NCBI GenBank assembly: GCA_964554645.1 | Contig: CAZKPK010000001.1 | Coordinates: forward strand, 3,697 to 67,696 | Direction: 5' to 3' | DNA: 64,000 bases | From: an uncultured Candidatus Saccharibacteria bacterium | GTDB taxonomy: Bacteria; Patescibacteriota; Minisyncoccia; Phycocordibacterales; UBA9973 | Part shown: one piece after another, positions 8,390-59,596 of the stretch | How the letters are laid out: each line of letters starts with the position of its first letter | How positions within the stretch are numbered: the first letter of the stretch is position 1 | Program-made: the position numbers and the translations under genes | The notes under the pieces: generated by a model | Told to the model about the DNA's origin: nothing | Databases searched by the model: none | The model's input: only the letters and a program-made list of their open reading frames with translations

Positions 8390-8437
8390 ATCCACCCCGT
8401 CCTTTGATTACAAAGTCCACCCCTCAAGAGGGGAATC
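8390..8437 (+). repeat. family A hairpin repeat (unit)
   Basis: ATCCACCCCG-[CCTTTGATTACAAAG]-TCCACCCCTCAAGAGGGGAATC; 47 nt identical to 16013-16059; starts 7 nt after pilM stop. Confidence 0.9.
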
Positions 8438-8444
8438 AGAAAAA

Positions 8445-8945
8445 ATGAAAGAAACTACCCCAAAAAAAGAAAAGTTTAAAGAAGTAATTGTTTCAGATGA
8501 AATTAGAAAATATCTTTCAGAAGCTACATGGCTGAAAGAGGGGGAAGATGTTAGACTCCCGGATTATATAAGACTCAAAACTGAAATAAGAGATATTTTA
8601 GTCCGAGTTGGAATTTGGTCGGATGAATTTTCTAAATGGCTAGATATGAATCTTGACGGTGTAAGTTTGCTGGGCAAACAAATTGAGGCAGTAGGCCAAT
8701 GGATGGAACGCAAAGATAATAAATATAGAAAAGAAAACTTAGAACATTACCGTGCTGGTGCAAAAACAAGCCTAGAATATTTGGAAGGCTGGTCTCCAGC
8801 ATTTGAAAAGTGGCTTCTTGATGGTTTGCCAGGAGATCTGCAAAAAGTTGGTGAAAACATGGATTATATAGGGAGAGTGTCTAGCACTATCGGAGCTATT
8901 AATATGGCAAAAAGATTGCTTAAGAAAAAAAAAGATCAAAAGTAA
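8445..8945 (+). CDS. hypothetical protein (accessory insertion in pil operon)
   Basis: 166 aa from ATG 8445 (MKETTPKKEKF...). The track ORF 8295 start reads through repeat A1 and overlaps pilM, so it is trimmed. Confidence 0.6.
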   Translation: MKETTPKKEKFKEVIVSDEIRKYLSEATWLKEGEDVRLPDYIRLKTEIRDILVRVGIWSDEFSKWLDMNLDGVSLLGKQIEAVGQWMERKDNKYRKENLEHYRAGAKTSLEYLEGWSPAFEKWLLDGLPGDLQKVGENMDYIGRVSSTIGAINMAKRLLKKKKDQK

Positions 8946-9026
8946 ACTATATTTCAACATGAGGAAGCGATATAAACAGAAAAGTAATAATCTAGATTAA
9001 AATAACTATATGCGCAATAGGCAACC

Positions 9027-9112
9027 ATCCACCCCGTCTCGACTAAAGTCGAGTCACCCCTCAAGAGGGGAACGTCCACCCCGACGCAAGCGTCACCCCT
9101 CAAGAGGGGAAT
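9027..9112 (+). repeat. family A repeat, tandem pair
   Basis: Two units: ATCCACCCCG-TCTCGACTAAAGTCGAGT-CACCCCTCAAGAGGGGAA and TCCACCCCG-ACGCAAGCGT-CACCCCTCAAGAGGGGAAT. Confidence 0.9.
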
Positions 9113-9162
9113 GGAATCCAAAATCTCTATATCCATATTGGGAAATTCCTAAAAACAAAATT

Positions 9163-9522
9163 TTGACTGATAGGGCAAAAGATTTAAGAAAGGCGGGTAA
9201 TTTATCTGAAGTTATTTTTTGGCAAACTTTTAAAGATAAAAATAAATTAGGTTTTGATATTGATAGACAAGTTATAATCGGCAATTATATTGTAGATTTT
9301 TTTATTCCCGAACTAGGTTTAGTTTTTGAGATAGACGGTTCAAGTCATGACGATAAGCTTGAATATGATGCTGAACGAGATGCTTTTATGAGAGATTTAA
9401 ATTTAAAAGTGGTTAGAATTCTTGATATTGATGTGAAGAAGAATCTAGGAAGTGTCTATCAATTTGTATTAGAAACAATACATAAAAGAAAAAAGGATGC
9501 ATTTGAATTATTCCCCTCTTGA
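9163..9522 (+). CDS. DUF559 (Vsr-like/PD-(D/E)XK) endonuclease-domain protein
   Basis: LRKAGNLSEVIFWQ..GFDIDRQVIIGNYIVDFFIPELGLVFEIDGSSH matches the DUF559 core. TTG 9163 is my start guess; ORF upstream to 9010 is repeat-encoded. The TGA stop lies inside the right-hand repeat. Confidence 0.75.
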   Translation: MTDRAKDLRKAGNLSEVIFWQTFKDKNKLGFDIDRQVIIGNYIVDFFIPELGLVFEIDGSSHDDKLEYDAERDAFMRDLNLKVVRILDIDVKKNLGSVYQFVLETIHKRKKDAFELFPS

Positions 9523-9596
9523 GGGGTACTCCGACTTCAGTCGGAGTGGGGTGGATGTATGAGGGGTGACCCGATGACCATCGGGTCGGGGTGGAT
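9510..9596 (-). repeat. family A repeat, tandem pair in inverted orientation
   Basis: ATTCCCCTCTTGAGGGGTA-CTCCGACTTCAGTCGGAG-TGGGGTGGAT + GTATGAGGGGTG-ACCCGATGACCATCGGGT-CGGGGTGGAT; reverse complement of family A consensus. Confidence 0.9.
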
Positions 9597-9665
9597 AGCT
9601 GTAGAACCAGAGTTATGCACATTATATTTCACTTAAGTTTGTTTTTGTAATATAATTAAGATACG

Positions 9666-10271: not shown

Positions 10272-10276
10272 TTTTT

Positions 10277-10897: not shown

Positions 10898-10973
10898 AAT
10901 AATTTCGCCCGAGCCGGAAAGGCTTTAGGGCTAAAAAATTAAAATTCCAATAGAGCGAACATAAAATAAAAAA

Positions 10974-11399: not shown

Positions 11400-11402
11400 A
11401 TT

Positions 11403-14684: not shown

Positions 14685-14689
14685 AAAGA

Positions 14690-14732
14690 CCACAGGTCAG
14701 ACCTGTGGGATTCCCATAGGTCTGACCTATGG
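14690..14732. repeat. family B palindromes, tandem pair (REP-like)
   Basis: CCACAGGTCAGACCTGTGG (14690-14708) and CCCATAGGTCTGACCTATGG (14713-14732) between pilT stop and pilC start. Confidence 0.9.
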
Positions 14733-14744
14733 AACAATAAAGAT

Positions 14745-15957: not shown

Positions 15958-16059
15958 GATTCTCCTCTTGAGGAGTACTCCGACTCAGGTCGGAGGGAGG
16001 TGGATGAGTTTTTCCACCCCGTCCTTTGATTACAAAGTCCACCCCTCAAGAGGGGAATC
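15958..16059. repeat. family A inverted doublet (REPIN-like)
   Basis: Reverse unit GATTCTCCTCTTGAGGAG..GGGAGGTGGAT (15958-16005) faces forward unit TCCACCCC..CCCCTCAAGAGGGGAATC (16013-16059); 18-nt terminal inverted repeats, 2 mismatches. Confidence 0.9.
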
Positions 16060-16134
16060 GCTACCCCTGTGGATAACTTTCTTGCATGTTTTTTTGCCTC
16101 TATATGATATAATTACTCCATTAGAAAAATATTT

Positions 16135-16162
16135 CAGCCATAGGCTGATCCGCCTTAGGCGG
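16135..16162 (-). repeat. family D double-hairpin repeat
   Basis: CAGCCATAGGCTGATCCGCCTTAGGCGG = reverse complement of CCGCC-TAA-GGCGG-AT-CAGCC-TAT-GGCTG. Confidence 0.8.
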
Positions 16163-16203
16163 AAAAAATAAGTCGAAAATATATTATTATTAGTTAATTA
16201 TTA

Positions 16204-17050: not shown

Positions 17051-17062
17051 TTTCTTTGCTTG

Positions 17063-17071
17063 TGGTATAAT
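17063..17071 (+). promoter_or_regulatory. extended -10 (TGgTATAAT) 6 nt upstream of MNT ATG
   Basis: TGGTATAAT-caaaaa-ATG(17078). Confidence 0.45.
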
Positions 17072-17077
17072 CAAAAA

Positions 17078-17470
17078 ATGAATATAAATGAGTTGCAATC
17101 AAAAATGATACCTTTGGCGGAAAAATACAATTTAAAATTAGTTGTTCTTTTTGGTTCGCAGGCTAGTGGACGGACACACAAAAGAAGCGACATAGATATA
17201 GCTGTTATTGGAAAAGTTGCTTTTGATATGACCAGACTCACAATTGATTTTTACAATCTTTTTAATAGAGAAGATGTAGAAATCGTTGATATCAGTAGCG
17301 CTTCGCCCACGACGATGTATGTAGTTGTCCGAGACGGAAAATTGTTATATGAAAGCGAATCCGGGGCTTTTTTGAAATGGAAACTTTATGCAATGTGGGT
17401 TTGGCGAGATACTGCATGGCTAAGAAGATTGCGCGATAAAAAATTGGTAGAGTGGGCCAAAACGGCATAA
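17078..17470 (+). CDS. nucleotidyltransferase-domain antitoxin (MNT/MntA-like)
   Basis: 130 aa from ATG 17078; LFGSQASGRTHKRSDIDIAV (GS..DxD NTase motif). Confidence 0.85.
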   Translation: MNINELQSKMIPLAEKYNLKLVVLFGSQASGRTHKRSDIDIAVIGKVAFDMTRLTIDFYNLFNREDVEIVDISSASPTTMYVVVRDGKLLYESESGAFLKWKLYAMWVWRDTAWLRRLRDKKLVEWAKTA

Positions 17471-17483
17471 TTCAATAATTCAT

Positions 17484-17912
17484 ATGATACAAAAAGACAC
17501 CATAAAAAAAATAGCTGTTATTCAAGATTATTTGAATGCTCTAGCTCTTTACTTGAAAATTCCTACGGAGGAATTATTGGAAAACAATGAAAAGCGAGCT
17601 GCCATGGAACGTTATTTTATTCTCATGGCAGATGAGGCTTTTGACATCAATAGTGCTTTGGCTTATCAACTCGGTAACAGGATTCCCGAATCAAATAAGT
17701 CAACGTTTTATGAAATAGCGAATTTGGATATAATCAGCAGAGAATTTGCGGATGAGATTTCATTATCCGCGAAGACGAGAAATAATCTCGTTCACGACTA
17801 TGAGAAGGTTCAAGAAAGCGTTCTCATTGAAGAAATGAAGAAATATGCGGAGTTATATAAAAAATATGTAAAGATTCTGATTGAAAAATTTGTGGCAGAT
17901 ATAGGGAAGTAG
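17484..17912 (+). CDS. HEPN/DUF86 toxin (HepT-like)
   Basis: 142 aa; RNNLVHDY = Rx4HxY HEPN motif; directly follows MNT gene. Confidence 0.85.
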   Translation: MIQKDTIKKIAVIQDYLNALALYLKIPTEELLENNEKRAAMERYFILMADEAFDINSALAYQLGNRIPESNKSTFYEIANLDIISREFADEISLSAKTRNNLVHDYEKVQESVLIEEMKKYAELYKKYVKILIEKFVADIGK

Positions 17913-17955: not shown

Positions 17956-18783
17956 ATGCTTTTTTTGCTTTTGGTTATTTTTTTCATCCTCGGTCTCATC
18001 ATCGGCAGCTTTTTGAATGTGATAATTTATCGGCTGAATACAGCCAGATCGTTCGGAGGCAGGAGCGCTTGTATGTCTTGTCAGAACAGGCTTTGCTGGT
18101 ATGAACTTATCCCACTCTTTAGTTTTTTGGGTCTTGGGGGGAGATGCCGAAGCTGTAAAACTAAAATTTCTATCCAATATCCGTTGGTGGAACTTGCGAC
18201 TGGCTTGATTTTCGCCTTGTTATTTTTTAAACTGCAAGATGTTTTTTATACTAATTCTCTGGTTTTTTTCATCACTTATGATTACTTTGCTTTATTGTTT
18301 TCACTTCTTCTAGTCATTGCCACTTATGATCTCAAACATAAAATAATTCCGGATATTTTGTCTTTTGCTTTTGGCGCGCTTGCTTTTATTGGCCTATTTT
18401 TCTTCTCCGCCCAAGGCGGATCCGCCTTTGGCGGAAATAATATTTTTTACCCCCATTTTCCCACAGTTTTAGAATTTTTGTCGGGTGGATTAATAGCGTT
18501 ACCTTTTGCTTTTTTTTGGCTTGTATCTTCCGGTCGGTGGATGGGGTTAGGGGATGCCAAGCTTGCGCTCGGCATTGGGTGGTTTTTAGGCATATCTTCT
18601 GCGCTCTCGGCTTTAGTGGTTGCTTTCTGGTCTGGAGCCATCGTCGGAATAATTCTCGTTATTTTTTCCAGAAATAGAAAAATTGGCAGGCTGGGGATGA
18701 AAAGCGAAATTCCTTTTGCCCCTTTCCTAGTTTTTGGCGCGTTTCTAGCTTTTATTTTTGGATTGAATCTTTTTGGAATTTAA
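17956..18783 (+). CDS. pilD: prepilin peptidase (A24 family)
   Basis: 275 aa; CMSCQNRL..CRSCKTKI zinc motif, YPLVE, GLGDAKL active-site Asp. Confidence 0.93.
   Translation: MLFLLLVIFFILGLIIGSFLNVIIYRLNTARSFGGRSACMSCQNRLCWYELIPLFSFLGLGGRCRSCKTKISIQYPLVELATGLIFALLFFKLQDVFYTNSLVFFITYDYFALLFSLLLVIATYDLKHKIIPDILSFAFGALAFIGLFFFSAQGGSAFGGNNIFYPHFPTVLEFLSGGLIALPFAFFWLVSSGRWMGLGDAKLALGIGWFLGISSALSALVVAFWSGAIVGIILVIFSRNRKIGRLGMKSEIPFAPFLVFGAFLAFIFGLNLFGI
18407..18434 (+). repeat. family D-like double hairpin inside pilD ORF
   Basis: CCGCC-CAA-GGCGG-AT-CCGCC-TTT-GGCGG, translated SAQGGSAFGG. Confidence 0.75.
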
Positions 18784-20593: not shown

Positions 20594-23222
<2,629 letters not shown>

Positions 23223-23240
23223 TTTCAATACAGGGAACCG

Positions 23241-23285
23241 TCGCATAGCGGTCAAGTGCCGAAGGGAATACAGACTTGGAAAGCG
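23241..23285 (+). pseudogene. tRNA-Ser 5'-half-like fragment
   Basis: TCGCATAGCGGTCAAGTGC and CTTGGAAAGCG match the D-arm and anticodon loop of the adjacent tRNA-Ser; no T arm or acceptor 3' strand. Confidence 0.3.
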
Positions 23286-23325: not shown

Positions 23326-23410
23326 GGAGGGTTCGCATAGCGGTCTAGTGCGCACGCTTGGAAAGCGTGTGTGGAGCAATCCACCAGGAGTCCGAATCTC
23401 CTACCCTCCG
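23326..23410 (+). tRNA. tRNA-Ser (anticodon GGA)
   Basis: Manual fold. Acceptor GGAGGGT/ACCCTCC. D arm GCAT-AGCGGTCTA-GTGC. Anticodon stem CACGC/GCGTG with loop TTGGAAA. Long variable arm TGTGGAGCAATCCACC. T arm AGGAG-TCCGAAT-CTCCT. Discriminator G; CCA not encoded. Confidence 0.85.
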
Positions 23411-23421
23411 CACGAATAAAG

Positions 23422-33507: not shown

Positions 33508-34095
33508 ATGAAAAAATTAATCTTAGCTTCAAGTTCAAGCACAAGGAAAAATTTGCTTACAGAAGCCGGCTTGAATTTTGAAATTGATCCAAGTAGTTAC
33601 GAAGAAGATATAACATTATTAATGTCTCCAAAAGAATTAGTGGCTCATTTATCTTACGGTAAAGCAAAAGATGTAGCATCGAGGCACCAAGAAGCCATAG
33701 TTCTAGGAGCTGATACAATTATTGTCTATCAAGATAAAATTCTCGGTAAACCTCATACATCGGAAAGAGCTAAAGAAATGTTAAAAATGTTAAGTGGTAG
33801 GGCACACTTAGTTGTTACTGGTTTTACAATAATTGATACGAAAAATAATCATAGCATCTCCAAAGTTGTAGAAACAGAAGTGTTTTTCAAAAATCTCACA
33901 GATAGAGAAATAGATAATTATGTAGCTACCGGTGAACCACTGAATAAAGCAGGGGCTTATGCAATTTTAGAGAATGGTGGCAAATTTGTTAAAAAGATCG
34001 AAGGAAGTAGAACAAATGTGTCAGGTTTACCCATGGAGGAGTTAATGAATGTTCTAAAAAATTCCCATAGGTCAGACCTATGGGATGTGTTATAA
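33508..34095 (+). CDS. maf: Maf-like nucleoside triphosphate pyrophosphatase
   Basis: 195 aa from ATG 33508; KLILASSSSTRKNLL, GADTIIVYQDKILGKP, AGAYAI; last residues (HRSDLWDVL) encoded by a family B palindrome. Confidence 0.88.
   Translation: MKKLILASSSSTRKNLLTEAGLNFEIDPSSYEEDITLLMSPKELVAHLSYGKAKDVASRHQEAIVLGADTIIVYQDKILGKPHTSERAKEMLKMLSGRAHLVVTGFTIIDTKNNHSISKVVETEVFFKNLTDREIDNYVATGEPLNKAGAYAILENGGKFVKKIEGSRTNVSGLPMEELMNVLKNSHRSDLWDVL
34064..34084. repeat. family B palindrome (left flank of RAYT gene)
   Basis: CCCATAGGTCAGACCTATGGG. Confidence 0.9.
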
Positions 34096-34102
34096 TAGCA
34101 GT

Positions 34103-34780
34103 ATGAGTCTCAGAGATTCGAATTTAGTGGAAAAAGAGTATTATCATATTTACAATCGCGGTAATGGAAAAAATAAAATTTTTAATTCCATAGAAGATTA
34201 CGATCGTTTTTGTAAACTTCTTTTTATTTGTAATTCTGAAAGAAGTTTTACATTCAGAGATTCAGTCGTAGATCAAAAAATTGATGCCTGGGATTTTGAA
34301 AGGGGAGAACCGCTTGTGGAAATATGTGCATGGGTTTTAATGCCTAATCATTTCCATATAATTTTAATTTCCCATAGGTCGGACCTATGGGATGAGAAGT
34401 ATAATCCAATAACGGAATTTATGAGAAAACTTTCTACGGCTTACGCTATGTATTTTAATAAGAAATATAACCGCACTGGATCTCTTTTTGAAGGAAAGTT
34501 TAAGTCTAAACATATTAGCAAAGATAATTATTTCCATTATTTATTTTCTTACATTCATCTTAATCCAATTAAATTAATCCAACCAGATTGGAAAGAAAAT
34601 GGTATCAAGAATAAAAAAGAAGCGATTGCTTATCTTATGAATTTTAAATATTCAAGTTTTCAAGATTTTTATGGTGTCTCTAGAAAAGAAGGAAAGATAA
34701 TAAATAAGAATTCGTTACCAGAAGATTTTAAATACAATCATGTTGAGGAACTTTTTGAATGGATAACTGATTCCCCATAG
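34103..34780 (+). CDS. IS200-like Y1 HUH transposase, REP-associated (RAYT-like)
   Basis: YHIYNRGN, HUH motif LMPNHFHIIL, catalytic Tyr motif YIHLNP; flanked by palindromes at 34064 and 34773. Confidence 0.85.
   Translation: MSLRDSNLVEKEYYHIYNRGNGKNKIFNSIEDYDRFCKLLFICNSERSFTFRDSVVDQKIDAWDFERGEPLVEICAWVLMPNHFHIILISHRSDLWDEKYNPITEFMRKLSTAYAMYFNKKYNRTGSLFEGKFKSKHISKDNYFHYLFSYIHLNPIKLIQPDWKENGIKNKKEAIAYLMNFKYSSFQDFYGVSRKEGKIINKNSLPEDFKYNHVEELFEWITDSP
34371..34391. repeat. family B palindrome inserted inside the RAYT ORF
   Basis: CCCATAGGTCGGACCTATGGG, 21 nt = 7 codons (SHRSDLW), 2 residues after the HUH motif. Confidence 0.9.
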
Positions 34781-34795
34781 GTCAGACCTATGGGG
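34773..34795. repeat. family B palindrome (right flank; provides RAYT stop codon)
   Basis: CCCCATAGGTCAGACCTATGGGG; the TAG at 34778-34780 is the stop. Confidence 0.9.
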
Positions 34796-37636: not shown

Positions 37637-38593
37637 ATGGCCAATAGGCACCTTTCCAGATCAATAGTGCTCCAAACGCTTTTTGAGTGGGATTTTATGT
37701 CCGCTGGGAAAGAGAGTATCAGTTCTATTAATGGCGAGATTAAGAAAGTATTGGACAGAAATTTAAAAGAATTTGCTCCCGGACTCGAAGATGACAGTTT
37801 TGTTTTTTCGCTTTTAAATGAAGTGTTAAAAAATTGTGTTCGGGTTGATCAAATTATAGAAACATCAGCGCCGGATTGGCCGATAAATAAAATTTCTGTC
37901 GTTGATAGAAATATTCTCCGAATCGGATTAACGGAACTTCTTTTCAGCGACCGATCGCAAGTGCCCCCAAAAGTGGCGATTAACGAAGCGATTGAATTGG
38001 CAAAAACTTTTGGCGGAGAGAATTCCAGTAAATTTATAAACGGCGTACTCGGAGCAGTTTATAAAGAAATGGGTGAACCTGGCAAGGAGCAAACGAGCAA
38101 AAAGAAAAATCGCAATCAATCCAAAGAACAGGGAAAAACGTTGGACCTCACCAAACTGCCGGTTGAAAACTTGGGCGGCGCGTTAGTTTATGCAACAAAA
38201 GATGGGAATATTTTATTTGCGCTTGTGCATGATGTTTTTGGCTACTGGACTCTTTCTAAAGGCAAAGTCGAAAAAAAGGAAAGTGTTCAGGAAGGGACAG
38301 TAAGAGCAATCAAGAAGGAAATCGGGCTTGATGTTGTGCTAGAAGAAAAACTTGGGGAAAATGAATATGTTGCAACCCACCCAGAAAAAGGAAAAAGCCT
38401 GAAGAAAGTTATATATTTTTTGGCGTATAGCGAATACAAGGAGCTTATTTTGGAAAAATCCGGCGGACTCGATGGGGCCAGATGGTTTGAAATGATGGAG
38501 GTGCCGGAACTTCGCATTTATAATGACATTATTCCGCTTATTGAAAAGGCGGTCGAAATATTGAGCAGTAAAAAACAAAAGAACAGTCAATAA
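37637..38593 (+). CDS. nusB: NusB antitermination factor fused to a C-terminal NUDIX hydrolase domain
   Basis: 318 aa; NusB core (ILRIGLTELLF, VAINEAIELAKTFGG, KFINGVLG); Lys-rich linker; NUDIX box GKVEKKESVQEGTVRAIKKEIGL. Confidence 0.85.
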   Translation: MANRHLSRSIVLQTLFEWDFMSAGKESISSINGEIKKVLDRNLKEFAPGLEDDSFVFSLLNEVLKNCVRVDQIIETSAPDWPINKISVVDRNILRIGLTELLFSDRSQVPPKVAINEAIELAKTFGGENSSKFINGVLGAVYKEMGEPGKEQTSKKKNRNQSKEQGKTLDLTKLPVENLGGALVYATKDGNILFALVHDVFGYWTLSKGKVEKKESVQEGTVRAIKKEIGLDVVLEEKLGENEYVATHPEKGKSLKKVIYFLAYSEYKELILEKSGGLDGARWFEMMEVPELRIYNDIIPLIEKAVEILSSKKQKNSQ

Positions 38594-39948: not shown

Positions 39949-42117
39949 ATGCGACTCAAAACTCTTGAACTGAATGGCTTTAAATCTTTTTCTCAAAAAA
40001 CAGTTTTGGAGTTTGATAACAGTATTGTCTGCATTGTCGGTCCGAACGGTTCAGGAAAATCAAATGTAGTAGAAGCCATCCGTTTTGTCTTGGGCGAGCA
40101 ATCAATGAAATCAATGCGTGGCAAGACGGGCGTTGATCTCATTTTCAAAGGATCCAAAAATTTGCCTAGGAAAACGCGGGCGGCCGTTACAATATATTTC
40201 AATAACTCTGACAAAATTTTTAGGCTTGAGGATGGTGTAGGAGAAAACATGAATTTGAATTATGACACTATCAGCATAACGCGCCAGGTTTTCCCTGACG
40301 GACTCAATAAATATATTTTAAATGGGACAGAAGTGCGCCTGAAAGATATTCACCACCTTCTGGCCTCGGTTAACATAGGTTCTTCCGGGCATCATATTAT
40401 TTCCCAGGGCGAGGCTGATAGGATTCTGAATGCCAGCCCAAAAGATAGGAAGGAAATGGTGGAAGATGCGTTGGGGCTCAAAATTTACCAGTATAAAATA
40501 AAAGAATCTGAGAGAAAACTGGAAAGAACAGAGAACAATATGAAAGAAGTGACCATGTTGCGCAGAGAAAATGCTCCGCACCTTAATTTCTTAAAGAAAC
40601 AAGTAGAAAAATTTGAAAGGGCGAAAGAAATGCAGGCAGAGTTAGCAATTCTCTACCAAGAATATTTAAAAAAAGAAAACGTTTATTTAAATAAAGAGAA
40701 GGAAAATTTTCTCGCAGAAAGAAATAAAATAGCCAAAGAACTGGAAAGTGTTGTTAGTAAAATTTCTCTGACTGAAGACAGTGGTTCAGCTAAGGGAAAT
40801 CAAAAAATAGAGGAGCTAAGAACTATTGAGCAAAAATTAAATGAAATCCGCAGCGCCAAGGGAGAAATGAACAGAAAACTGGGAAGAATTGAAGGGATGA
40901 TAGAGGCCAAACAGAATAGAGTTAAAATTTCTGGCCGGTGTCCCATGTGTGGCAGAGAGTGGGGGGAAATGAGCAAAGAACAACTCGAAAACAGAGAAAA
41001 CAATCAGCAAGAATTAGCAGAATTGAAAAATTCTCAAGCTGGTATTCTAACGCAGGTGCAGGAAATGGAAAATAAAGAGAAAGAGCTTGTCGATCAGATA
41101 GAAGAATTGAAGCAGGAAATAAATAAACAGATGGAAACCTTGCGCGATTTGGAGCGGGAGAAGTTCAGCTTTAAGGTTAGGCATCAGGAATTGTCTTCAG
41201 CTTTGGAACTGGTGCGCATCAAAGAAACGAATTTAAAAGGCAGGCTTGAAGCCTTTGAAAGTGAGATCAAAGAAGGTGTAGCGCTTATAGGTCAAGAGAT
41301 TTTGTCCTATCCGCCCGAGGCGGACCAGCCTTGGGCTGGTAAAGAAATAGATGAAACAAGGCAAGCTGAGTTAAAGAAAAAAATTGAGCGTTTGAAAATA
41401 AAATTGGAAGATGCCGGTCTTGGCGGCGGAGCGGAAGTTTTGAAAGAATTCAAAGAAGTTTCGGAGAGGGATAATTTTTTAGCGAAAGAAATGGAAGATT
41501 TATCTAAAAGCATGGTGGCGTTGCAAAAGCTCATAGAAGATTTAAAGGAAAAGATAGACACAGAATTCAAGGAGGGTATCAAAAAAATAAACAAAGAATT
41601 TCAAGAATTTTTCTCCTTAATGTTTGGCGGGGGGACGGGATCTCTTGCGATAGTGGTGGAGAATAAAAAGAGACGAAGTATGAGCGAAGAAGAGGCTAAA
41701 TTCAGCGAAGCTGAATCGCCCGACGCTTCTGAAGAAGCGTTTAGGGAAGAGATTGTTTTTGAACAGGGCATAGAAATAAATGTTTCACTTCCTCATAAAA
41801 AGGTCAAAGAGCTTCAGGCGCTCTCGGGCGGGGAGCGATCACTCACTTCTATTGCTCTTCTCTTTGCGATGTCGCAAGTGAATCCTCCGCCATTTTTGGT
41901 GCTTGATGAAACCGATGCTGCGCTGGACGAAGCCAACTCGCGCAAATATGGAGATATGTTGGAAAAACTTTCCAAACATTCTCAGCTTATTGTTGTTACC
42001 CACAACCGCGAGACGATGTCCCGCGCCGGCGTGCTCTATGGCGTAACGATAGGCGGAAATGACACCTCCAAGCTTCTTTCTGTTAAATTCGAAGAAGCCA
42101 CCCAAATTGCGAAATAA
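39949..42117 (+). CDS. smc: SMC-family chromosome segregation ATPase, short form with central CxxC instead of a hinge
   Basis: 722 aa; N-head LNGFKSF..GPNGSGKSNVVEAIRFVLGEQS; C-head LSGGERSLTSIALLFA..LVLDETDAALD; CPMCGREW at residues 331-338; no hinge-like segment seen. Confidence 0.9.
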   Translation: MRLKTLELNGFKSFSQKTVLEFDNSIVCIVGPNGSGKSNVVEAIRFVLGEQSMKSMRGKTGVDLIFKGSKNLPRKTRAAVTIYFNNSDKIFRLEDGVGENMNLNYDTISITRQVFPDGLNKYILNGTEVRLKDIHHLLASVNIGSSGHHIISQGEADRILNASPKDRKEMVEDALGLKIYQYKIKESERKLERTENNMKEVTMLRRENAPHLNFLKKQVEKFERAKEMQAELAILYQEYLKKENVYLNKEKENFLAERNKIAKELESVVSKISLTEDSGSAKGNQKIEELRTIEQKLNEIRSAKGEMNRKLGRIEGMIEAKQNRVKISGRCPMCGREWGEMSKEQLENRENNQQELAELKNSQAGILTQVQEMENKEKELVDQIEELKQEINKQMETLRDLEREKFSFKVRHQELSSALELVRIKETNLKGRLEAFESEIKEGVALIGQEILSYPPEADQPWAGKEIDETRQAELKKKIERLKIKLEDAGLGGGAEVLKEFKEVSERDNFLAKEMEDLSKSMVALQKLIEDLKEKIDTEFKEGIKKINKEFQEFFSLMFGGGTGSLAIVVENKKRRSMSEEEAKFSEAESPDASEEAFREEIVFEQGIEINVSLPHKKVKELQALSGGERSLTSIALLFAMSQVNPPPFLVLDETDAALDEANSRKYGDMLEKLSKHSQLIVVTHNRETMSRAGVLYGVTIGGNDTSKLLSVKFEEATQIAK
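41311..41339 (+). repeat. family D double hairpin inside smc
   Basis: CCGCC-CGA-GGCGG-AC-CAGCC-TTG-GGCTG; translated PPEADQPWAG. Confidence 0.8.
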
Positions 42118-45287: not shown

Positions 45288-45403
45288 TTATATACAATAC
45301 AGATATGGAGCAGTGCATCCGGTCGTAAAACTGCTAAACATTTCCACCTGAGGTGGATTCGCCTTTGGAGGAAAAAATTAAAAGTAATTTACTGAAATAA
45401 CAT

Positions 45404-50119: not shown

Positions 50120-53100
50120 ATGAAAACTTTAAACACAACTGAATTTAATTCGATCGCCCTACGGCTTGCGTCTCCGGAACAAATCAAGGAGTGGTCATTC
50201 GGGGAAGTGACGAAGCCCGAGACGATAAATTATCGCACTGGCCGATCCGAACGTGGAGGTCTCTTTGATGAAAAAATATTTGGACCGGAAAAAGATTACG
50301 AATGTTATTGCGGAAAATACCGCCGGATTCGTTATAAAGACATCATTTGCGAGAAATGCGGAGTGGAAGTTACCCGTTCGATAGTGCGCCGAGAGCGAAT
50401 GGGACACATCGAGCTTGGAACTCCCGTCTCGCATATTTGGTTTCTGCGCGGGGTGCCTTCTCGGATGAGCATTCTGCTTAATATATCCGTGACGGATCTG
50501 GAAAAGGTAATATATTTTGCCGGATATATAATTACTAAAGTTCACGAGGATGAGAAAGAAGCTGTTATTGCCAATTTAGATAAGGAATACAAATCTAAAT
50601 TAAAAAATGCGACCGATGATGATACTCGAGAAAAATTGAAAAATCTGCTTTCTATTACCAAGAAAGAAATTGGGGAAATTTATGAAGGGAAAGTTCTGAA
50701 TGAAATTTCTTTTCATCACTATTCTTTGAAATACGGAACTTGTTTTGAGGCCAATATAGGCGCTGAAGCTATTTATTCCATTTTTAAAAATTTAGATTTA
50801 GATAAATTAAAGACCCATACCGAAAAGATGATCGAAAAAGCCAGCGTGGCTGAAAAAGAGAAATTACAGAAAAGGCTTTCTCTTATTCGCGCTATGACCT
50901 ATGCCGGAATTCGTCCGGAATGGATGTTTTTGACCGTTTTTCCAGTTATTCCTCCTGTCTTGCGCCCGATGGTCGCTTTAGATGGAGGTCGGCACGCGAC
51001 TTCCGACTTGAATGATCTTTATCGTCGAGTTATTAATCGAAACAATCGCTTGAAGAAGTTGAAAGAAATCAATGCGCCGGATGTAATTTTGCGAAATGAA
51101 AAAAGAATTATTCAAGAAGCGGTTGATGCGCTGATCGATAATTCAATTGCCAAACAGAATGATTCTGCCGCCATGAGTCAGTCTCAAAAGCGTCCCCTAA
51201 AATCGCTGTCAGACAATTTAAAATCAAAACAAGGTCTTTTCCGCCAAAATTTGCTTGGAAAAAGAGTAGATTATTCAGGACGTTCAGTGATTGTCGTTGG
51301 TCCCGAGCTTAAGCTTAATCAATGCGGATTGCCAAAACACATGGCGCTGGAACTTTTTAGGCCATTTGTAATTTCCAAAATCTTGCAAGCGGAATTGGCG
51401 TTTAATATTCGCGGGGCAAACAAGCTGATAGAAGAACGAGGGGGGGAAGTCTGGGCAATGCTGGAAGAGGTTATTGCCGGAAAATACGTTCTCTTGAACC
51501 GCGCGCCGACCCTCCATCGTTTAGGTATCCAAGCTTTTAATCCGATTTTAATCGAGGGAAATGCTATTCAAGTTCACCCTCTTGTCTGCCAAGCTTTCAA
51601 CGCTGACTTTGATGGAGACCAAATGGCAGTCTATGTTCCTTTGCTTGAAGAAGCGCAATGGGAGGCAAAAGAGTTCATGGCTTCGAACAAGAATTTACTA
51701 AAACCCCAAAATGGCGATCCGATCGTGCATCCGCGCATGGATATGGTGCTTGGAAGTTTTTGGATGACGAAATCAATAGAAGGAGAAGTGGGTGAAGGCA
51801 AGTATTTTTCTAGGCCCAACACCGCCGTCACGGCCTATGATTATGGGATTATTTCTATGCGGGCCAAAATAAAAGTTCTTCCAATGGATAAACCCAAGTA
51901 TAAGAAATTTAATGGAGAAATTTTTGAAACGACCGTCGGCAGAATCATATTCAATAGTATTTTGCCGGATGATTTTCACTATGTAAATGATGAAATGACT
52001 CAAGATAGGTTGTCTTCTCTCTTGGATGAATTGATTATGCACTCGGGAGTTGAAAATATTCCCCATATTTTGGATACAATTAAAGCTTTTGGTTTTAAAT
52101 ATTCTACTATCTCCGGCACCACTTGGGGGTTGGATAATGTTTCTGTGTCTTCCGAGAAACCGAAAATTATAGCCGAAGGCAAGAAACTTGAAAAAGAAAT
52201 AATCTCCCAGTGGCAGGAAGGTCTTTTATCTGAGGAAGAAAAATATCAAAAAGTTATTGAAGTTTGGACGCATATGAAGAAAAATTTGGAAAAAGTTTTA
52301 CCCAAGACGGTTGACAAACACAGTTCCACTTACGATATATTTACTTCTAAAGCCAGAGGCACGATGAGTTCTTTGATGCAGATGACTGGAATGATCGGGC
52401 TGATTCAAAATAACCAAGGCAAAACCCTGGAATTTCCGATTATCCCTTGCTATCAAGAAGGGCTTTCCCCAATTGAATATTTCGTTATTACTCATGGCGC
52501 TCGCAAAGGCGCTTCCGATACCGCGTTAAATACCGCCAAAGCTGGATATCTAACTCGCAGATTGGTTGATGTGGCGCAGGATGTGGTTATCACTGAAGTA
52601 GATTGCGGAACCAAAGAGGGCAGGATAGTTACCAAAGAAAATATTTCTGGAATTGAAATTCCGCTTTCAAAAAATATCCGCGGGCGGGTATTGGCGGGAG
52701 ATCTTAAAAACAAAAATGGCAAGGTAGTTTATAAAAAAGGGTTTTTAGTCACGAAAGAGGAGGCCTACAATATTGAAGGAGCAGGTTTTACGGAAGTATT
52801 TGTCCGTTCTCCTTTAACCTGCCGCACTGTTCATGGTCTGTGTGTCATGTGTTATGGACTTGACTTAGGACGAAATCGTTTAGTGGAGCTTGGCGAAGCG
52901 GTCGGCATTATCGCGGCTCAGGCCATCGGAGAACCGGGAACTCAGCTTACGCTTCGCACCTTTCACGCTGGGGGCGTTGCCGGCACTGATATTACCACCG
53001 GTCTTCCGCGTGTCGAAGAAATATTTGAAAGGAGAATTCCTAAAAATCCGGCCATTATTTCTGAAACCGATGGTGAAGTGATCGAAATAAAAATAAAAGA

Positions 53101-53791
53101 TCCCGCCTCTGGCGGGACAGGTGTAAAATCTGCTCACTCCCGCGATATTTCAGGATCCGGCGGGGAAAAAATAATCAAAGTGCTTTCAGATCTGGAAGAT
53201 AGTAAGGCGGGGGCTAAAAACGAAATAGAATATCTTGTTCCGTTTCACAGAATGCCTACCGTTAAAGCAGGTGATCACATAAAGAAAGGGGATCTCCTAA
53301 CTGACGGGTCAGCGGATATTGCTGAAATGTTTAAATTTGGCAACAAGGAATTAGTCGAAAATTATATAATTCGGGAAATAAACAAAGTTTATGAATTGCA
53401 AAGCGCTTCAATTTCCAGAAAGCATACGGAAATAATTATCCGCCAAATGTTTTCGCGCCGAAAAATAAAAGACGCGGGCGACACTAATTTTTCCATCGGC
53501 GATATTGTTGAGAATACCGCATTTATAGAAGAAAATCAGAGAGTTGCGCGCTTGGCGGTTAAACCGCCAAGCGCGCTTGGCGGTTTAACCGCCAAAGCAG
53601 AAACAGTGGTGCTTGGTATCACGGAAGTGTCGCTTCGCACTAAAAGTTGGCTCTCGGCGGCTTCGTTCCAAAACACCAATCGCGTTCTTATTGAAAACGC
53701 GGTCAAGGGCGGGGTAGATTCTTTGAGAGGGTTAAAAGAGAATGTTATAATCGGTAGGTTAATTCCGGCTGGAACTGGATTTAAAAAATAA
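50120..53791 (+). CDS. rpoC: DNA-directed RNA polymerase subunit beta'
   Basis: 1223 aa; Zn CYCGKY..CEKCGV, NADFDGDQMAV, GEAVGIIAAQAIGEPGTQLTLRTFH. Confidence 0.98.
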   Translation: MKTLNTTEFNSIALRLASPEQIKEWSFGEVTKPETINYRTGRSERGGLFDEKIFGPEKDYECYCGKYRRIRYKDIICEKCGVEVTRSIVRRERMGHIELGTPVSHIWFLRGVPSRMSILLNISVTDLEKVIYFAGYIITKVHEDEKEAVIANLDKEYKSKLKNATDDDTREKLKNLLSITKKEIGEIYEGKVLNEISFHHYSLKYGTCFEANIGAEAIYSIFKNLDLDKLKTHTEKMIEKASVAEKEKLQKRLSLIRAMTYAGIRPEWMFLTVFPVIPPVLRPMVALDGGRHATSDLNDLYRRVINRNNRLKKLKEINAPDVILRNEKRIIQEAVDALIDNSIAKQNDSAAMSQSQKRPLKSLSDNLKSKQGLFRQNLLGKRVDYSGRSVIVVGPELKLNQCGLPKHMALELFRPFVISKILQAELAFNIRGANKLIEERGGEVWAMLEEVIAGKYVLLNRAPTLHRLGIQAFNPILIEGNAIQVHPLVCQAFNADFDGDQMAVYVPLLEEAQWEAKEFMASNKNLLKPQNGDPIVHPRMDMVLGSFWMTKSIEGEVGEGKYFSRPNTAVTAYDYGIISMRAKIKVLPMDKPKYKKFNGEIFETTVGRIIFNSILPDDFHYVNDEMTQDRLSSLLDELIMHSGVENIPHILDTIKAFGFKYSTISGTTWGLDNVSVSSEKPKIIAEGKKLEKEIISQWQEGLLSEEEKYQKVIEVWTHMKKNLEKVLPKTVDKHSSTYDIFTSKARGTMSSLMQMTGMIGLIQNNQGKTLEFPIIPCYQEGLSPIEYFVITHGARKGASDTALNTAKAGYLTRRLVDVAQDVVITEVDCGTKEGRIVTKENISGIEIPLSKNIRGRVLAGDLKNKNGKVVYKKGFLVTKEEAYNIEGAGFTEVFVRSPLTCRTVHGLCVMCYGLDLGRNRLVELGEAVGIIAAQAIGEPGTQLTLRTFHAGGVAGTDITTGLPRVEEIFERRIPKNPAIISETDGEVIEIKIKDPASGGTGVKSAHSRDISGSGGEKIIKVLSDLEDSKAGAKNEIEYLVPFHRMPTVKAGDHIKKGDLLTDGSADIAEMFKFGNKELVENYIIREINKVYELQSASISRKHTEIIIRQMFSRRKIKDAGDTNFSIGDIVENTAFIEENQRVARLAVKPPSALGGLTAKAETVVLGITEVSLRTKSWLSAASFQNTNRVLIENAVKGGVDSLRGLKENVIIGRLIPAGTGFKK
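53102..53116. repeat. GC hairpin within a GC-rich segment of rpoC
   Basis: CCCGCC-TCT-GGCGGG; surrounding 53095-53170 encodes DPASGGTGVKSAHSRDISGSGGE. Confidence 0.55.
53546..53597. repeat. family C palindrome doublet inside rpoC
   Basis: GCGCGCTTGGCGGTT-A-AACCGCCAAGCGCGC (31-nt perfect palindrome) + CTTGGCGGTTTAACCGCCAAAG; translated LAVKPPSALGGLTAK. Confidence 0.92.
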
Positions 53792-55080: not shown

Positions 55081-55152
55081 ATTAACCATTTTACGAGATA
55101 TTAATATTTTACCTGATGAGTTTTGTAAATTACGGTGCTTTTCCTTAAACCA

Positions 55153-55180: not shown

Positions 55181-55213
55181 TTAGATATTATTATTATAAT
55201 AATAAAAAACGCC

Positions 55214-55486: not shown

Positions 55487-55495
55487 TATTATTAT

Positions 55496-55753: not shown

Positions 55754-55761
55754 AACATATT

Positions 55762-57579
55762 ATGTCCTCATCAGTTGACCAAATTAAATCACGAATAGAC
55801 ATCCTCTCGCTTGTAAGCTCTTATATCAAGCTAGATAAGGCAGGAGCGAGTTGGAAAGCCAAATGTCCGTTTCATAATGAAAAAACACCCTCATTTTTTG
55901 TCTCGCCGGAACGGGGGAGTTATTATTGTTTTGGTTGCGAGGCTTCGGGAGACATTTTCACTTTTGTGGAAGAATTTGAAGGGTTGGATTTTAAGGGCGC
56001 TCTGAAACTTTTAGCAGATCGCGCAGGAGTGGTGCTTGAAGTTTACAGTCAGGAAAAGAAAGAAGTAGGTGAATTGATTTTTTTGGAGAAAGAAAAATTA
56101 TATCGAGTGATGGAAGAAACCACGAAGTTTTTTGAAAATAATTTTCCGCCCAAGGCGGATCAGCCTCGAGCTGAAAAGGAAATAAAAGAAGCATTAGAGT
56201 ATCTGAAATCGCGTGGTTTAACCGATAAAACTATCAAAGATTTTAGAATAGGTTATGCCATTCTTGATTGGCGAACACTTTATGATTACCTAAAGTCTAA
56301 GAATTTTTCTGATGAAGAAATAGAGCTTGCCGGATTGGCCAAGAAACCGGAAGACAAGACAAAAGCAATGTATGACCGCTTTCGCGGACGCATAATGTTC
56401 CCAATTTCCGATTCCAGTGGCCGGATTATTGCTTTTTCGGGAAGAATTCTGATTGATGATGGAAAATCGGCGAAGTATTTAAATAGTCCGGAAACCCCGA
56501 TATTTAATAAATCTTCCGTGCTTTTTGGCATAGATAAAGCAAAAGATTCCATCCGCAAAAATAACTTTTCCATTTTAGTTGAAGGGCAGATGGATTTAGT
56601 TTTATCGCATCAGGTCGGTTTTAAAAATACTGTTGCATCTTCTGGCACGGCGATGAATGATTCGATAATATCTAAAGAGAACATTATAAATAATTTAGGG
56701 CTTGTTTGCAGATTATCTAAAAATATCGTTCTGGCTTACGATGCTGACAAAGCGGGAGTGAATGCTTCCAATCGTTTTGCAAAAATCGCATTATCTTTAG
56801 GGATGGATGTGAAAGTGGCCAGTATGAGAGAGGGTGTCGATCCAGCCGATATTATCTCCAAAGAGGGTAAAGATGCGTGGCATCAAGCAATCCGAGATTC
56901 AAAACATTTTATTCCATTTATGCTAGAGCGAATCTTGAAAGATGCATCTGGTGATGGAAGAAAAGTGGGCAGAGGAATTCAAGAACGTCTTTTGCCTTTT
57001 CTGAAGGATTTAGACAGCGCGATGGAAAAATCCCATTTTATCAAACTTATTAGCGATAAATCCGGCATAGCTGAAAAAGCTCTAATGGAGGATTTGCAGA
57101 AAGTAGAGTCAGAATTGAAATATGAAACAGAAGAAATCAAAATCGCGAAAGAAAATGTGGACAAAAAATTGAGAAAAGATCCGATTGAACGCAGACTGCT
57201 GGGAATAGCTTTTTGGCAGGAAAGTGTTAAAAGTAAGATCGTAGATCCAGAAATCATTTTTGCGAAACTAGGTAAAGTGAAGGAATATTATAAAGACAAA
57301 AAAGAAGATTTAATTTTCGAAGCGGAAGCTTTTTATTCCAATAGCGAAAACTTACAAAAAGATGTGCGAGAGATGCTACTTTCGATTGAAGAAGAATATC
57401 TTAATGAGGAGCTTGTTAAGAAAATGATAGAACTTAAAAATCTGAAAGATGAAAAGGCTAAATCCAATGTAATTGGATCGCCCGACACTTCAGCAAAAGT
57501 GTTTAGGGACGAAGCAGAAATTTTAAAAAGAATAAATGAAATAAATAAGAGGAAAGAAGAAATTAAAAATAGTCGCTAA
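55762..57579 (+). CDS. dnaG: DNA primase
   Basis: 605 aa; Zn ribbon [45 protein letters not shown]. Confidence 0.96.
56146..56173 (+). repeat. family D double hairpin inside dnaG
   Basis: CCGCC-CAA-GGCGG-AT-CAGCC-TCG-AGCTG; translated [10 protein letters not shown]. Confidence 0.8.
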
Positions 57580-57583
57580 AAAA

Positions 57584-58762
57584 ATGAAAAAAAAGAAAAT
57601 AAAAAAAGTAAATAAGAAGAAAACTATCAAGAAAATAAAAAAGTCCCGACCGAAAGCGTCGGGAAAAAAAGTTGCGAAATTATCTTCTCTAGAAAAAAAA
57701 GCGGAAAATTTGACTCGTATTTCAGATGAGCTTATAGAAAAAGGGCGCAAAAGGGGATTTATTACTTATGATGAAATATTAAAAACTTTTCCTGATGTTG
57801 AAAATAATATTTTATTTCTCGACGAGCTTTATGAGAAATTTGCGATTGCCGGCATTGATGTGTTGGAGGGGGGGAATTTACTCAATCTTAATGTGGATTT
57901 AGCCGATAAAGATTTGGGAAAGTCTGGTATGTATGATTCGATCCAAATGTATCTGAAGGAAATAGGCCAATATCCGCTGATTCACGCGAGTGACGAAAAA
58001 GAACTTGCCAAACGCATTGAACATGGCGATGAAGAAGCAAAAAATCTGCTGGCTCGCGCAAACTTGCGTCTGGTGGTTTCCATTGCCAAAAAATATGTCG
58101 GAAGATCTGCCAATTTAACTCTTCTTGATCTGATTCAGGAAGGCAATTTAGGCCTATTCAAGGCAGTGGAAAAATTTGATTGGACTAAAGGATACAAATT
58201 TTCCACTTACGCGACTTGGTGGATTCGCCAGTCTATTACTCGCGCGTTGGCGGATCAATCCCGCACCATCCGCATACCGGTTCATATGGTGGAAACAATT
58301 TCCAAATATAAGCAAACGCACCGTCGGCTTTCTCAGGATTTGGGCCGGGAACCATTAGCCGAAGAAATTGCCACCGAAATGGGTATTCCAGTGGAAAAAA
58401 TTCACATAATTGAAAATATTAGCCAAGAAACTGTCTCTTTAGAACAGCCAGTCGGGGATGATGACGACAAATCAACTCTCGAAAATTTTATTCCGGATGA
58501 TAAAATCTTGCGCCCAGATCAAGAATCTTCACGCCGGATTCTTTCCGACCAAATTCGCGAAGTTTTAAGTGAACTCAATCCCAAAGAGCGTAAAATACTT
58601 GAAATGCGTTACGGACTTCTTGACGGCATCCAACACACTCTTGAACGGGTAGGAGAAGAATTTGGCGTGACGCGCGAGCGTATCCGCCAAATTGAAGCGA
58701 AAGTTCACGAAAAACTTCGCCAGCATGACAAAATTGCGAGGTTGAAAAACTATTTTGACTAG
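57584..58762 (+). CDS. rpoD: RNA polymerase primary sigma factor (sigma-70)
   Basis: 392 aa; Lys-rich N-terminus; region 2 [13 protein letters not shown]; region 4 [11 protein letters not shown]. Confidence 0.96.
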
Positions 58763-58788
58763 TTAAACTAGATAACAAAATCATTCAA

Positions 58789-59316
58789 ATGATAAAACTT
58801 ATTTTAATAGTTGGATTAATTGTAAATTATGTACCTAAATTTAGACTTAGTGTTTTTAAACAATTAAAATCTTTAAGAAAGATTTCGTTGATACTTTTTG
58901 AAATCATAATACCTTTGGTAGCCATAATTCAATTATATTTATTAAATCCAAAAAATAATTTCATTACATATATGGGAATTATAATTTTTTCTATTGGAAT
59001 TGTATTAGGAACAATCGCTCGTTTACAGCTACGAGAAAATTATCTACCCATCTTAGCCACAAGTCCTTCAAGCAGAATTATTACTAACGGTATTTATGCA
59101 TATATCAGACATCCGATTTACTTTGGTACGATATTAACTATCATGGGTTTTGAATTAGTTCTCTTTCCTTTTCTGTCTTTAATGATTTTAATCATAATTC
59201 CAATACTTGTTTGGCAAATTAACAAAGAAGAAAAGCTTCTTTTTAAACATCTCAAAAAAGAATGGGAAATATATATTTTAAGAACTCCTTTTAAATTAAT
59301 ACCTTTTGTATATTAA
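58789..59316 (+). CDS. isoprenylcysteine carboxyl methyltransferase (ICMT)-family membrane protein
   Basis: 175 aa; GIYAYIRHPIYFGTIL, multi-TM. Confidence 0.75.
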   Translation: MIKLILIVGLIVNYVPKFRLSVFKQLKSLRKISLILFEIIIPLVAIIQLYLLNPKNNFITYMGIIIFSIGIVLGTIARLQLRENYLPILATSPSSRIITNGIYAYIRHPIYFGTILTIMGFELVLFPFLSLMILIIIPILVWQINKEEKLLFKHLKKEWEIYILRTPFKLIPFVY

Positions 59317-59551
59317 CAACCAAAACAACAGCTAGATTTTACTTAGCCAAAAGGTTAAATTTTTTTACAGCTTAAAATAAATTTTTAAGACCCTTTTTTA
59401 CTTTACTTAAATTTTTAGCATCCAATTTTTTTTATGTCTATTTGTTTATGCTTGATATCTTTAACCGAATAAATTTCCGGTTCATCAGCTAAAAAATCAA
59501 AACTCTTTGAATATGCGTTTATATTCGTTATTAATGAAAAGACGCGTTAAA

Positions 59552-59596
59552 ATTCCCCTCTTGAGGGGTGGCTCGGTAATCCGAGACGGGGTGGAT
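59552..59596 (-). repeat. family A repeat unit directly after dsbA-like stop
   Basis: ATTCCCCTCTTGAGGGGTGG-CTCGGTAATCCGAG-ACGGGGTGGAT. Confidence 0.9.

Follow-up and report, generated by a model that had tools for sequence, protein, structure and literature searches.

Repeat families of the window

The DNA analysed here, a 64-kb stretch of a Patescibacteria genome (contig CAZKPK010000001.1; hereafter the window, with positions counted from its first nucleotide), holds a pilus gene cluster with pilM, pilT, pilC and pilD, the genes ligA, pheT, smc, rpoC and dnaG and a DsbA-like gene, and is populated by short GC-rich hairpin repeats. The gene identities given in a preliminary description of the sequence were found to be correct with Pfam and NCBIfam. 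Thirty repeat elements of 21–85 nt are present in the 64 kb. The window is around 86% coding, yet only 16 of the elements lie in frame within open reading frames (ORFs) and the other 14 fall in the 14% that is non-coding. The four families of the preliminary description, A to D, were all located where it had placed them. Family A now numbers ten units at six loci, on both strands and in two subtypes, A1 and A2; family B, a palindrome, six copies (at 14689, 14713, 30622, which is a variant, 34064, 34371 and 34774); family C five units at three loci (21353–21375, 21763–21804 and 53546–53595); and family D five copies (at 16131, 18403, 41307, 45340, which is degenerate, and 56142). Pattern searches recovered all four, with none expected by chance from dinucleotide-preserving shuffles, and an independent repeat finder returned the same four families. 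A search for perfect GC-rich hairpins with stems of 7 bp or longer returned 75 records, compared with 4.5 ± 2.2 in block shuffles. The presence of repeat families in the window is confirmed. At least five further hairpin elements, E to I, occur once each in it (at 21531, 22752, 23112, 29696 and 30343). Elements F, G and H and the outer ends of the family A units and doublets share ends of the form (A)ATTC...GAAT(T), which may be a common terminal signature or an insertion-site preference. No Rfam family was matched anywhere in the window at the gathering threshold, and an A doublet searched against Rfam gave only chance-level matches.

Intergenic copies lie very close to the stop codons of pilM, pilT, pilC and the DsbA-like gene, as had been described, at a measured distance of 4–6 nt. 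An A1 unit on the forward strand (8390–8436) is found 6 nt 3′ of the pilM stop, two family B palindromes, one variant and one canonical, lie between pilT and pilC (14689–14733), and a doublet, made of an A2 unit on the reverse strand (15959–16005) and an A1 unit on the forward strand (16013–16058), follows the pilC stop by 5 nt. An A1 unit on the reverse strand (59552–59596) is positioned 4 nt from the stop of the DsbA-like gene. Two family D units, both on the forward strand, are also intergenic, one between pilC and a pilin gene (16131–16165), which is present in the stretch L191 from another genome and absent in a second, L140, and the degenerate one between rpsP and a KH gene (45340–45374). 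The 16 copies within ORFs, where at least 13 that preserve the frame had been described, introduce neither a stop codon nor a frameshift. Their hosts are pilD, ligA (five), pheT (five units at four sites), smc, rpoC, dnaG, the C-terminus of maf, a gene for a REP-associated tyrosine transposase (RAYT; REP, repetitive extragenic palindromic) and a gene for a DUF559 nuclease.

In-frame elements and their gain and loss

LigA was compared with the E. coli enzyme (2owo) and with 120 orthologues of 68–75% identity, 39 of which were displayed. Its closest relatives are from Nomurabacteria and Paceibacterota, and the length of the protein varies from 665 to 757 residues across the 120. Relative to E. 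coli LigA four of the five repeat sites are insertions: element E (21531–21566, forward strand) adds 8 residues, a family C doublet (21763–21804) adds 7, element F (22752–22811, forward) around 27 and element G in the BRCT region (23112–23144, forward) 12. The fifth, a family C palindrome encoding LGGLTAK (21353–21375), causes no net change in length. All five sites are short in most of the 120 orthologues. The GGLTAK peptide is found in four of them and element G in only two of the 39 displayed, while many orthologues have other repeat-coded peptides at the five sites (for instance PPLLSGEGRGEV, SPLSGGGEV, FPPDKGGLRGV and PHNLVSLGTPTTK). About ten orthologues share the peptide of element F at this position and five more have it elsewhere in LigA, so that F is itself a repeat family, despite its single copy in the window. 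Structural mapping, which had been proposed as a check, was carried out on an AlphaFold model of LigA of moderate quality (mean predicted local distance difference test, pLDDT, 71.7). In this model all four inserts with a net gain are coil segments with pLDDT below 50 (residues 167–173 for element E and 245–251 for the family C doublet), and the LigA inserts are predicted to occupy permissive loops.

For PheT, SMC, RpoC and DnaG one or two relatives each were used for comparison. PheT (29439–31367), with 642 residues and the Pfam B3_4 domain as its first, starting at residue 120, is short for a bacterial PheT, and nonetheless carries five repeat units. Elements H (29696–29770, forward strand) and I (30343–30373, a palindrome with a 14-bp stem) fall in gaps of 16 and 11 residues, respectively, in the L018 orthologue, which is 72% identical. 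A family B variant palindrome encoding PHMSDMWE (30622–30642) gives a net gain of only two residues relative to the same protein, and the in-frame A2(−)/A1(+) doublet (30994–31076, with the A2 unit at 30994–31031 on the reverse strand and the forward unit at 31038–31076) is also present in L018, with different middle hairpins. In smc a family D unit (41307–41341, forward) gives a net gain of four residues relative to L097. The SMC protein (39949–42117) has only 722 residues, of which 3–706 are covered by the SMC_N model, compared with about 1,180 in a typical bacterial SMC, and judging from the sequence its coiled coil would be much shorter. A family C doublet in rpoC (53546–53595) adds eight residues relative to B. 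subtilis β′, and family D units lie in frame in dnaG (56142–56176, forward), where ten residues are added relative to Aquifex DnaG, and in pilD (18403–18437, forward). A further stretch of rpoC (53080–53200, residues ~990–1030) has around 27 extra residues relative to B. subtilis β′, between conserved blocks, and contains a short GC hairpin (53101–53117); it may be one more degenerate element.

In LigA, PheT, SMC, RpoC and DnaG, therefore, the repeat-coded segments are mostly missing in relatives. The claim that the copies within ORFs are insertions stands for most of them, which are lineage-specific indels, and does not extend to the family C palindrome at 21353, the family B variant at 30622 and the family B copy in the RAYT gene, which are accompanied by little or no net change in length. 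These comparisons show that the repeats are retained, in frame, within loops of essential proteins. The reuse of the same loops, together with the cases of near-zero net change, suggests either a strong filter for permissive sites or the replacement of one element by another.

Filled and empty sites were found at three pairs. An 84-nt A doublet within the RNase R gene of L061 is absent from the orthologue in the window, the doublet 3′ of pilC in the window is missing in L140 and L191, and in a pair from the Thermotogaceae (L103 and L052) one site is likewise filled and the other empty. The elements have been gained and lost among related genomes. The motifs are not confined to the window: at least 118 stretches from other genomes contain family A, and related genomes contain family D and peptides encoded by C, F and G. 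Within 1.25 Mb of loci from other genomes there are three occurrences of family D, and families B and C and elements E to I are absent except for B beside related RAYT genes. As the segments are mostly absent from orthologues, the motifs recur elsewhere and empty sites exist in relatives, the proposal of the preliminary description that these repeats resemble Rickettsia palindromic elements (RPEs) holds. Many of the contigs with homologues of the DUF559 or RAYT gene are just 1–3 kb long, and the Logan contig L199, which carries the neighbouring genes, breaks off within the DsbA-like gene, some hundreds of bases away from the family A copy at 59552; both are consistent with assembly breaks at the repeats.

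Families A and B and their adjoining nuclease genes

The family A unit reads (A/T)TCCACCCCG, followed by a variable, co-varying hairpin and then CACCCCTCAAGAGGGGAAT. Subtype A2, TCCACCTCC...TACTCCTCAAGAGGAG, differs from A1 by transitions that keep the pairing of the 3′ hairpin, and A2(−)/A1(+) doublets give a cloverleaf or four-way-junction fold on either strand, at −44 to −59 kcal/mol. The middle segment takes 186 distinct forms in 320 copies. Pairing is found in 90% of the middle-hairpin cells for a gap-free set of 32 distinct sequences, compared with 62% when shuffled and 16–27% when the partner is slid, and double changes affect 41 cells compared with 10 in the shuffles, none of 500 being as high. 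The middle hairpin is structurally constrained. The dRS3 repeat of Neisseria (ATTCCC-N8-GGGAAT) was considered as an identity for the conserved hairpin of family A and rejected, the 5′ arm of one strand being CACCCC, not ATTCCC.

The exact 24-base pattern of family A is found in at least 118 stretches of other genomes from more than ten phyla. The hosts include Paceibacteria, Nomurabacteria, Saccharibacteria, Kapabacteria and Ignavibacteria (with chromosome-level assemblies among them) and Bacillota, and further Thermotogaceae, Simkania, Hyphomicrobiales, Nitrospirota, Desulfobulbaceae, Limisphaerales, Cloacimonadota and Brocadia. Family A is not specific to one genome, its 24 specified bases being unchanged across more than ten phyla. 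Families B and C are absent from these loci and no RAYT homologue is found among them. Outside the Patescibacteria A1 is embedded in longer conserved flanks that are specific to the genome, such as '...gcttttctttCCACCCC...GGGGaatttttt' in the Bacillota genome Th196P3bin37 (L004, L020, L035, L063 and others) and a 68-nt insert in the Thermotogaceae (L003, L009, L022, L037 and L103), so the mobile unit is likely to be larger there. The family A pattern was absent from viral contigs and the DUF559 unit gave no match in plasmid and phage collections, so no vector for the spread across phyla was found.

Within approximate stop-to-stop ORFs A1 is found 37 times in the sense and five times in the antisense orientation, which is above the 3:2 ratio expected from open frames. 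Intergenic A1 units show no orientation bias with respect to the upstream gene (33 antisense and 23 sense), which speaks against the units being terminators and nothing else. These counts bear on the possibility that the hairpins are not mobile, and are instead host signals in RNA or DNA under selection, such as terminators, mRNA stabilisers or protein-binding sites. The position of many copies 4–6 nt past stop codons, the co-variation of the hairpins and a T-run after the A unit in some Bacillota would all fit such signals. Identical units within the ORFs of unrelated genes would not, nor would the presence and absence of an element at orthologous sites, the lack of intergenic bias, the lack of Rfam matches and the coupling of families to nuclease genes, and we regard this explanation as very improbable.

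The first of these genes is an ORF (9010–9522, forward strand) encoding a DUF559 endonuclease of the Vsr-like PD-(D/E)XK type, matched by Pfam PF04480 at 1.5e-21 (76.8 bits, with a gathering cut-off of 20.6). Aligned to 3hrl (5.6e-9), it conserves the VDF, E-x-DG and H residues. It is 100% identical to P0241, annotated as 'DUF559 domain-containing protein [Candidatus Nomurabacteria bacterium]'. Together with the closest LigA relatives, this match assigns the window to Candidatus Nomurabacteria (Patescibacteria). DUF559 is a member of the clade of PD-(D/E)XK nucleases that contains Vsr and I-Bth0305I (PMC3424549). The 5′ end of the ORF runs through two tandem A1(+) units (9027–9112, made up of 9027–9073 and 9075–9112), and its 3′ end lies in an A1(−) unit (9510–9556), the only closed frame of which provides the TGA stop codon; a truncated A1(−) unit follows (9557–9596; the pair spans 9510–9596). 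The preliminary description gave the six family A loci correctly and missed both this bracketed gene and the spread of the family across phyla.

The same arrangement is found in other genomes. A DUF559 ORF is present in eight of the 118 loci selected for family A, with inverted A units at or overlapping the ORF ends in six of the eight. A further 80 metagenomic loci were fetched by similarity to DUF559, and 43 could be assessed at 65% identity or above. In 41 of these an A(+) core precedes the ORF upstream, for the most part at exactly −34 nt, and most have an A(−) core at −6 or −12 nt from the ORF end. The usual start is an ATG just 5′ of the A unit, giving a protein that begins M-x-K-K-N-...-STPS-(hairpin)-HPSRGE-WNPKSLYPYWEIPKN, and a few relatives start 3′ of the unit. 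At 52–63% identity the layout is reversed, with A(−) upstream and A(+) downstream. Relatives with identities down to 37% are flanked by inverted A-like units in which the stems are altered in a compensatory way (CCCCTC/GAGGGG, CCCCTCT/AGAGGGG, CCCCTCC/GGAGGGG, CCCCTCTGGAGGGG, and CCCCCTT/AAGGGGG with a GGGGGAT box), and additional copies of the matching stem variant occur in the loci of distant relatives. In five distant relatives no flanking repeat is present. Family A is physically and evolutionarily coupled to the DUF559 gene, with the stem co-varying as the nuclease diverges. This bracketing and co-variation are evidence of the same kind as that which defines the RAYT/REP and Ssn/NTS pairs. 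No link between DUF559 and repeats appears in the titles and opening lines of the abstracts of the full-text literature matches to DUF559 that were listed, and the only comparable system without an HUH enzyme in the literature searched is the Ssn/NTS report (PMC11893778).

The genomic position of the gene may also be informative. Of about 47 close relatives, 18 belong to the type IV pilus operon, where three junctions are used: one follows pilM, one separates the pilN-like gene from the ORF after it (the situation in the window), and one falls between pilB and the response regulator/pilT. Another eight are directly 3′ of dnaG-rpoD. The contig Ga0265292_1000082 carries two copies, one of them truncated. 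With several junctions occupied in related genomes, the unit of DUF559 and repeat has moved several times. Should the bias towards the pilus operon be functional, expression together with DNA uptake would be a parallel to Ssn. An alternative explanation for the pairing is one modelled on Ssn/NTS, in which DUF559 would be a nuclease specific for hairpins, cleaving single-stranded DNA that carries the repeat as it enters via the competence pilus and so modulating natural transformation, with the spread of the repeat as a by-product. The numbers of genes in the pilus operon and after dnaG-rpoD would favour this, and Ssn/NTS has the same anatomy of a repeat-flanked gene and affects transformation (PMC11893778). 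The pilus location may, on the other hand, stem from shared ancestry or from the few permissive intergenic sites in a compact genome, and the nuclease fold is unlike that of Ssn; we consider this account rather unlikely.

The same junctions, of which at least four are used in related genomes, and the contig with two copies could also be read as the traces of a free-standing selfish gene akin to a homing endonuclease. DUF559 would then cut empty A doublets and be copied in by recombinational repair, family A being a landing pad that is spread by something else. This would agree with the gene always being enclosed by a pair of inverted A units, in one or the other of the two doublet configurations, both of which are also found without a gene, and with PD-(D/E)XK enzymes cutting DNA and not ligating it; the Vsr/DUF559 clade does contain a group I intron homing endonuclease (3r3p; PMC3424549). 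It leaves the dispersal of family A and its near-invariance across phyla unexplained, however, and the co-variation of stem and nuclease fits a homing gene and a cognate enzyme equally well. No allele with only an A doublet was found at a site orthologous to that of DUF559. We judge a homing gene to be distinctly unlikely.

The second gene (34103–34780, forward strand) encodes a RAYT-like Y1/HUH transposase with an HFH motif and the tyrosine of YIHLNP. It has 120 homologues in Patescibacteria, some of which are named RayT by JGI, and no match by sequence to the solved RAYT structures. Three family B palindromes are associated with it: one 5′ of the gene (34064–34084), which encodes the last residues of Maf, one within the ORF just after the HUH motif (34371–34391), encoding SHRSDLW, and one at the 3′ end (34774–34794), which provides the residues SP and the stop codon. 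The displayed homologues are all around 225 residues long, and all 31 have the peptide of the internal palindrome, either as such or in compensated form, 29 of them with SHRSDLW or a sequence one residue away. The SPRSDLG variant, with H to P and W to G, is compensatory and matches the change of CCCATAGG to CCCCTAGG. In L202 all three palindromes read CCCCTAGG...CCTAGGGG, and the internal palindrome of L204 has synonymous compensatory substitutions, to CAC and CTG. The copy in the RAYT gene had been taken as a case of colonisation, a view that does not survive this comparison: it is conserved in the displayed homologues with compensatory changes and co-varies with the flanking palindromes. The embedded hairpin is therefore a conserved and structurally constrained part of the RAYT gene family. 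Family B is physically and evolutionarily coupled to the RAYT gene, and beyond this locus has three further copies in the 64-kb window. L204 also carries a second Y1_Tnp gene (4779–5432, 217 residues), 4.6 kb upstream of its RAYT homologue.

Some other features of the window are recorded here. A tRNA-Ser (GGA) was identified at 23326–23411 by ARAGORN and was missed by the Rfam scan at the gathering threshold, and a tRNA-like GC-rich stretch lies at 23231–23267. A toxin-antitoxin pair of MntA (a nucleotidyltransferase) and HepT (an RNase) is located in the pilus cluster between the pilin gene and pilD (17060–17912). The 318-residue ORF at 37637–38593 is a fusion of NusB (residues 4–144) with a Nudix/MutT-like C-terminal part.

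Mobility, known systems and significance

The explanation that we favour, with a probability of roughly 70%, is that the window has been settled by mobile repeat families resembling REPs and MITEs (miniature transposable elements with inverted repeats), which are tolerated in frame and for two of which RAYT and DUF559 are the cognate enzymes. On this explanation at least nine families of short GC-rich hairpin repeats would populate the window and be gained and lost between relatives. Insertions that break genes would be purged by selection, and the survivors would be those beside stop codons or those in frame and stop-free in protein loops that tolerate changes in length, the same outcome as for RPEs. 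Two families would have a probable cognate enzyme in the window, RAYT for B and DUF559 for A. Family B would form a unit with the RAYT gene, with three co-varying palindromes (5′, embedded and 3′), and by analogy RAYT may mobilise it via single-stranded hairpin intermediates; mobilisation of REPs by TnpA-REP through single-stranded hairpins is established in other bacteria. DUF559, for its part, may recognise the A unit or doublet as a folded single strand or a cruciform and cleave it, as in the RAYT/REP and Ssn/NTS pairs, and cleavage would either drive the spread of the repeat or act on repeat-bearing single-stranded DNA. Binding and cleavage by DUF559, and the route by which family A disperses, are inferred.

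Several observations weigh against this explanation. To our knowledge PD-(D/E)XK nucleases do not join DNA, and DUF559 alone could not transpose. Since such an enzyme is not expected to join DNA, family A might be dispersed through host repair or replication, or the gene might be a parasite of the homing type or a nuclease like Ssn. Of the 118 loci bearing family A, 110 have no DUF559 gene within 8 kb. Neither a target-site duplication nor a defined insertion motif could be discerned at the three filled and empty pairs, and the several copies within ORFs that bring almost no net change in length are not accounted for by simple insertion. The RAYT gene scores under the curated cut-offs of Pfam (Y1_Tnp, 5e-4) and NCBIfam (REP_Tyr_transpos, 5.5e-12, under the equivalog cut-off), and family B is sparse, with no dispersed copies in the 20-kb flanks of two related RAYT loci. 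Families C to I have no candidate enzyme in the window.

As in the case of RPEs, several palindromic families are found in a reduced genome as in-frame, lineage-specific inserts in housekeeping genes that are unrelated to one another, at places that the protein fold can accommodate. RPEs are around 100–150 bp long and encode a conserved peptide (Ogata et al, 2000, 2002, as summarised in PMC10969869). The elements described here are shorter, at 21–85 nt, their host is one of the Patescibacteria, and two of the families have a linked nuclease gene, none being known for RPEs. They would thus seem to work like RPEs without being members of that group, the likeness being one of behaviour.

With REP/RAYT systems and REPINs the repeats share a RAYT-like HUH/Y1 gene bracketed by family B, palindromes that co-vary between genomes and, in family A, inverted doublets that fold back. 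Here, unlike in those systems, the RAYT coding sequence has one palindrome in its interior and takes its stop codon from another, copies are intragenic as well as extragenic, and the partner of family A is not a RAYT. REPINs are described as vertically inherited and lineage-specific, whereas family A is common to several phyla.

The pairing of family A with DUF559 most resembles Ssn/NTS, where a small nuclease gene lies between hairpin repeats of its own that are also dispersed (PMC11893778). Common to both are a single-domain nuclease gene flanked by inverted, dispersed hairpin repeats of 20–50 nt, many co-varying pairs, a broad range of taxa and a possible link to DNA uptake. The differences are that DUF559, known here from sequence alone, is a Vsr-like PD-(D/E)XK protein (PF04480) and not a GIY-YIG one (cd10448), that the family A unit consists of two conserved boxes around a variable hairpin, and that both ORF ends are overlapped by repeats. 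Scanning 38 ORFs of the window against Pfam revealed no GIY-YIG domain, and among these there is no GIY-YIG partner for families C and D. Vsr and I-Bth0305I (PMC3424549) share the fold family and catalytic motif with DUF559 at the level of sequence. The adjacent cytosine methyltransferase of Vsr is lacking here, the neighbours being pilus genes or rpoD, as is the intron or intein context of I-Bth0305I, and neither of the two has been described as being associated with dispersed repeats.

Most noteworthy here are the DUF559-repeat partnership, which is the main novelty, and the palindrome embedded in RAYT; RPE-like palindromes and the REP/RAYT and Ssn/NTS pairs are of known kinds. A bolder proposal, possible but with the odds somewhat against it, is that the DUF559 clade is a third independent class of repeat-associated nuclease, after RAYT (HUH) and Ssn (GIY-YIG), with a hairpin or cloverleaf repeat of its own in each lineage; it would spread horizontally across more than ten phyla and in Patescibacteria be wired into the competence-pilus operon, seeding inserts in essential proteins. 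The coupling of family A to DUF559 in itself adds a third nuclease superfamily to the few partnerships of enzyme and hairpin repeat.

Protein-coding palindromes like the RPEs have hitherto been treated as a peculiarity of Rickettsia and are now also seen in Patescibacteria, where in-frame repeats call for caution in the annotation and phylogenomics of these genomes. The reuse of the same loops by different repeat families amounts to a natural experiment on how loops in proteins are acquired and tolerated. The palindrome in the RAYT frame suggests that the gene is itself a substrate of the enzyme or is regulated by it. The coupling of DUF559 to a repeat gives a testable function to a very large family of domains of unknown function, which, like Ssn, might provide useful nucleases that are specific for a sequence or a structure.

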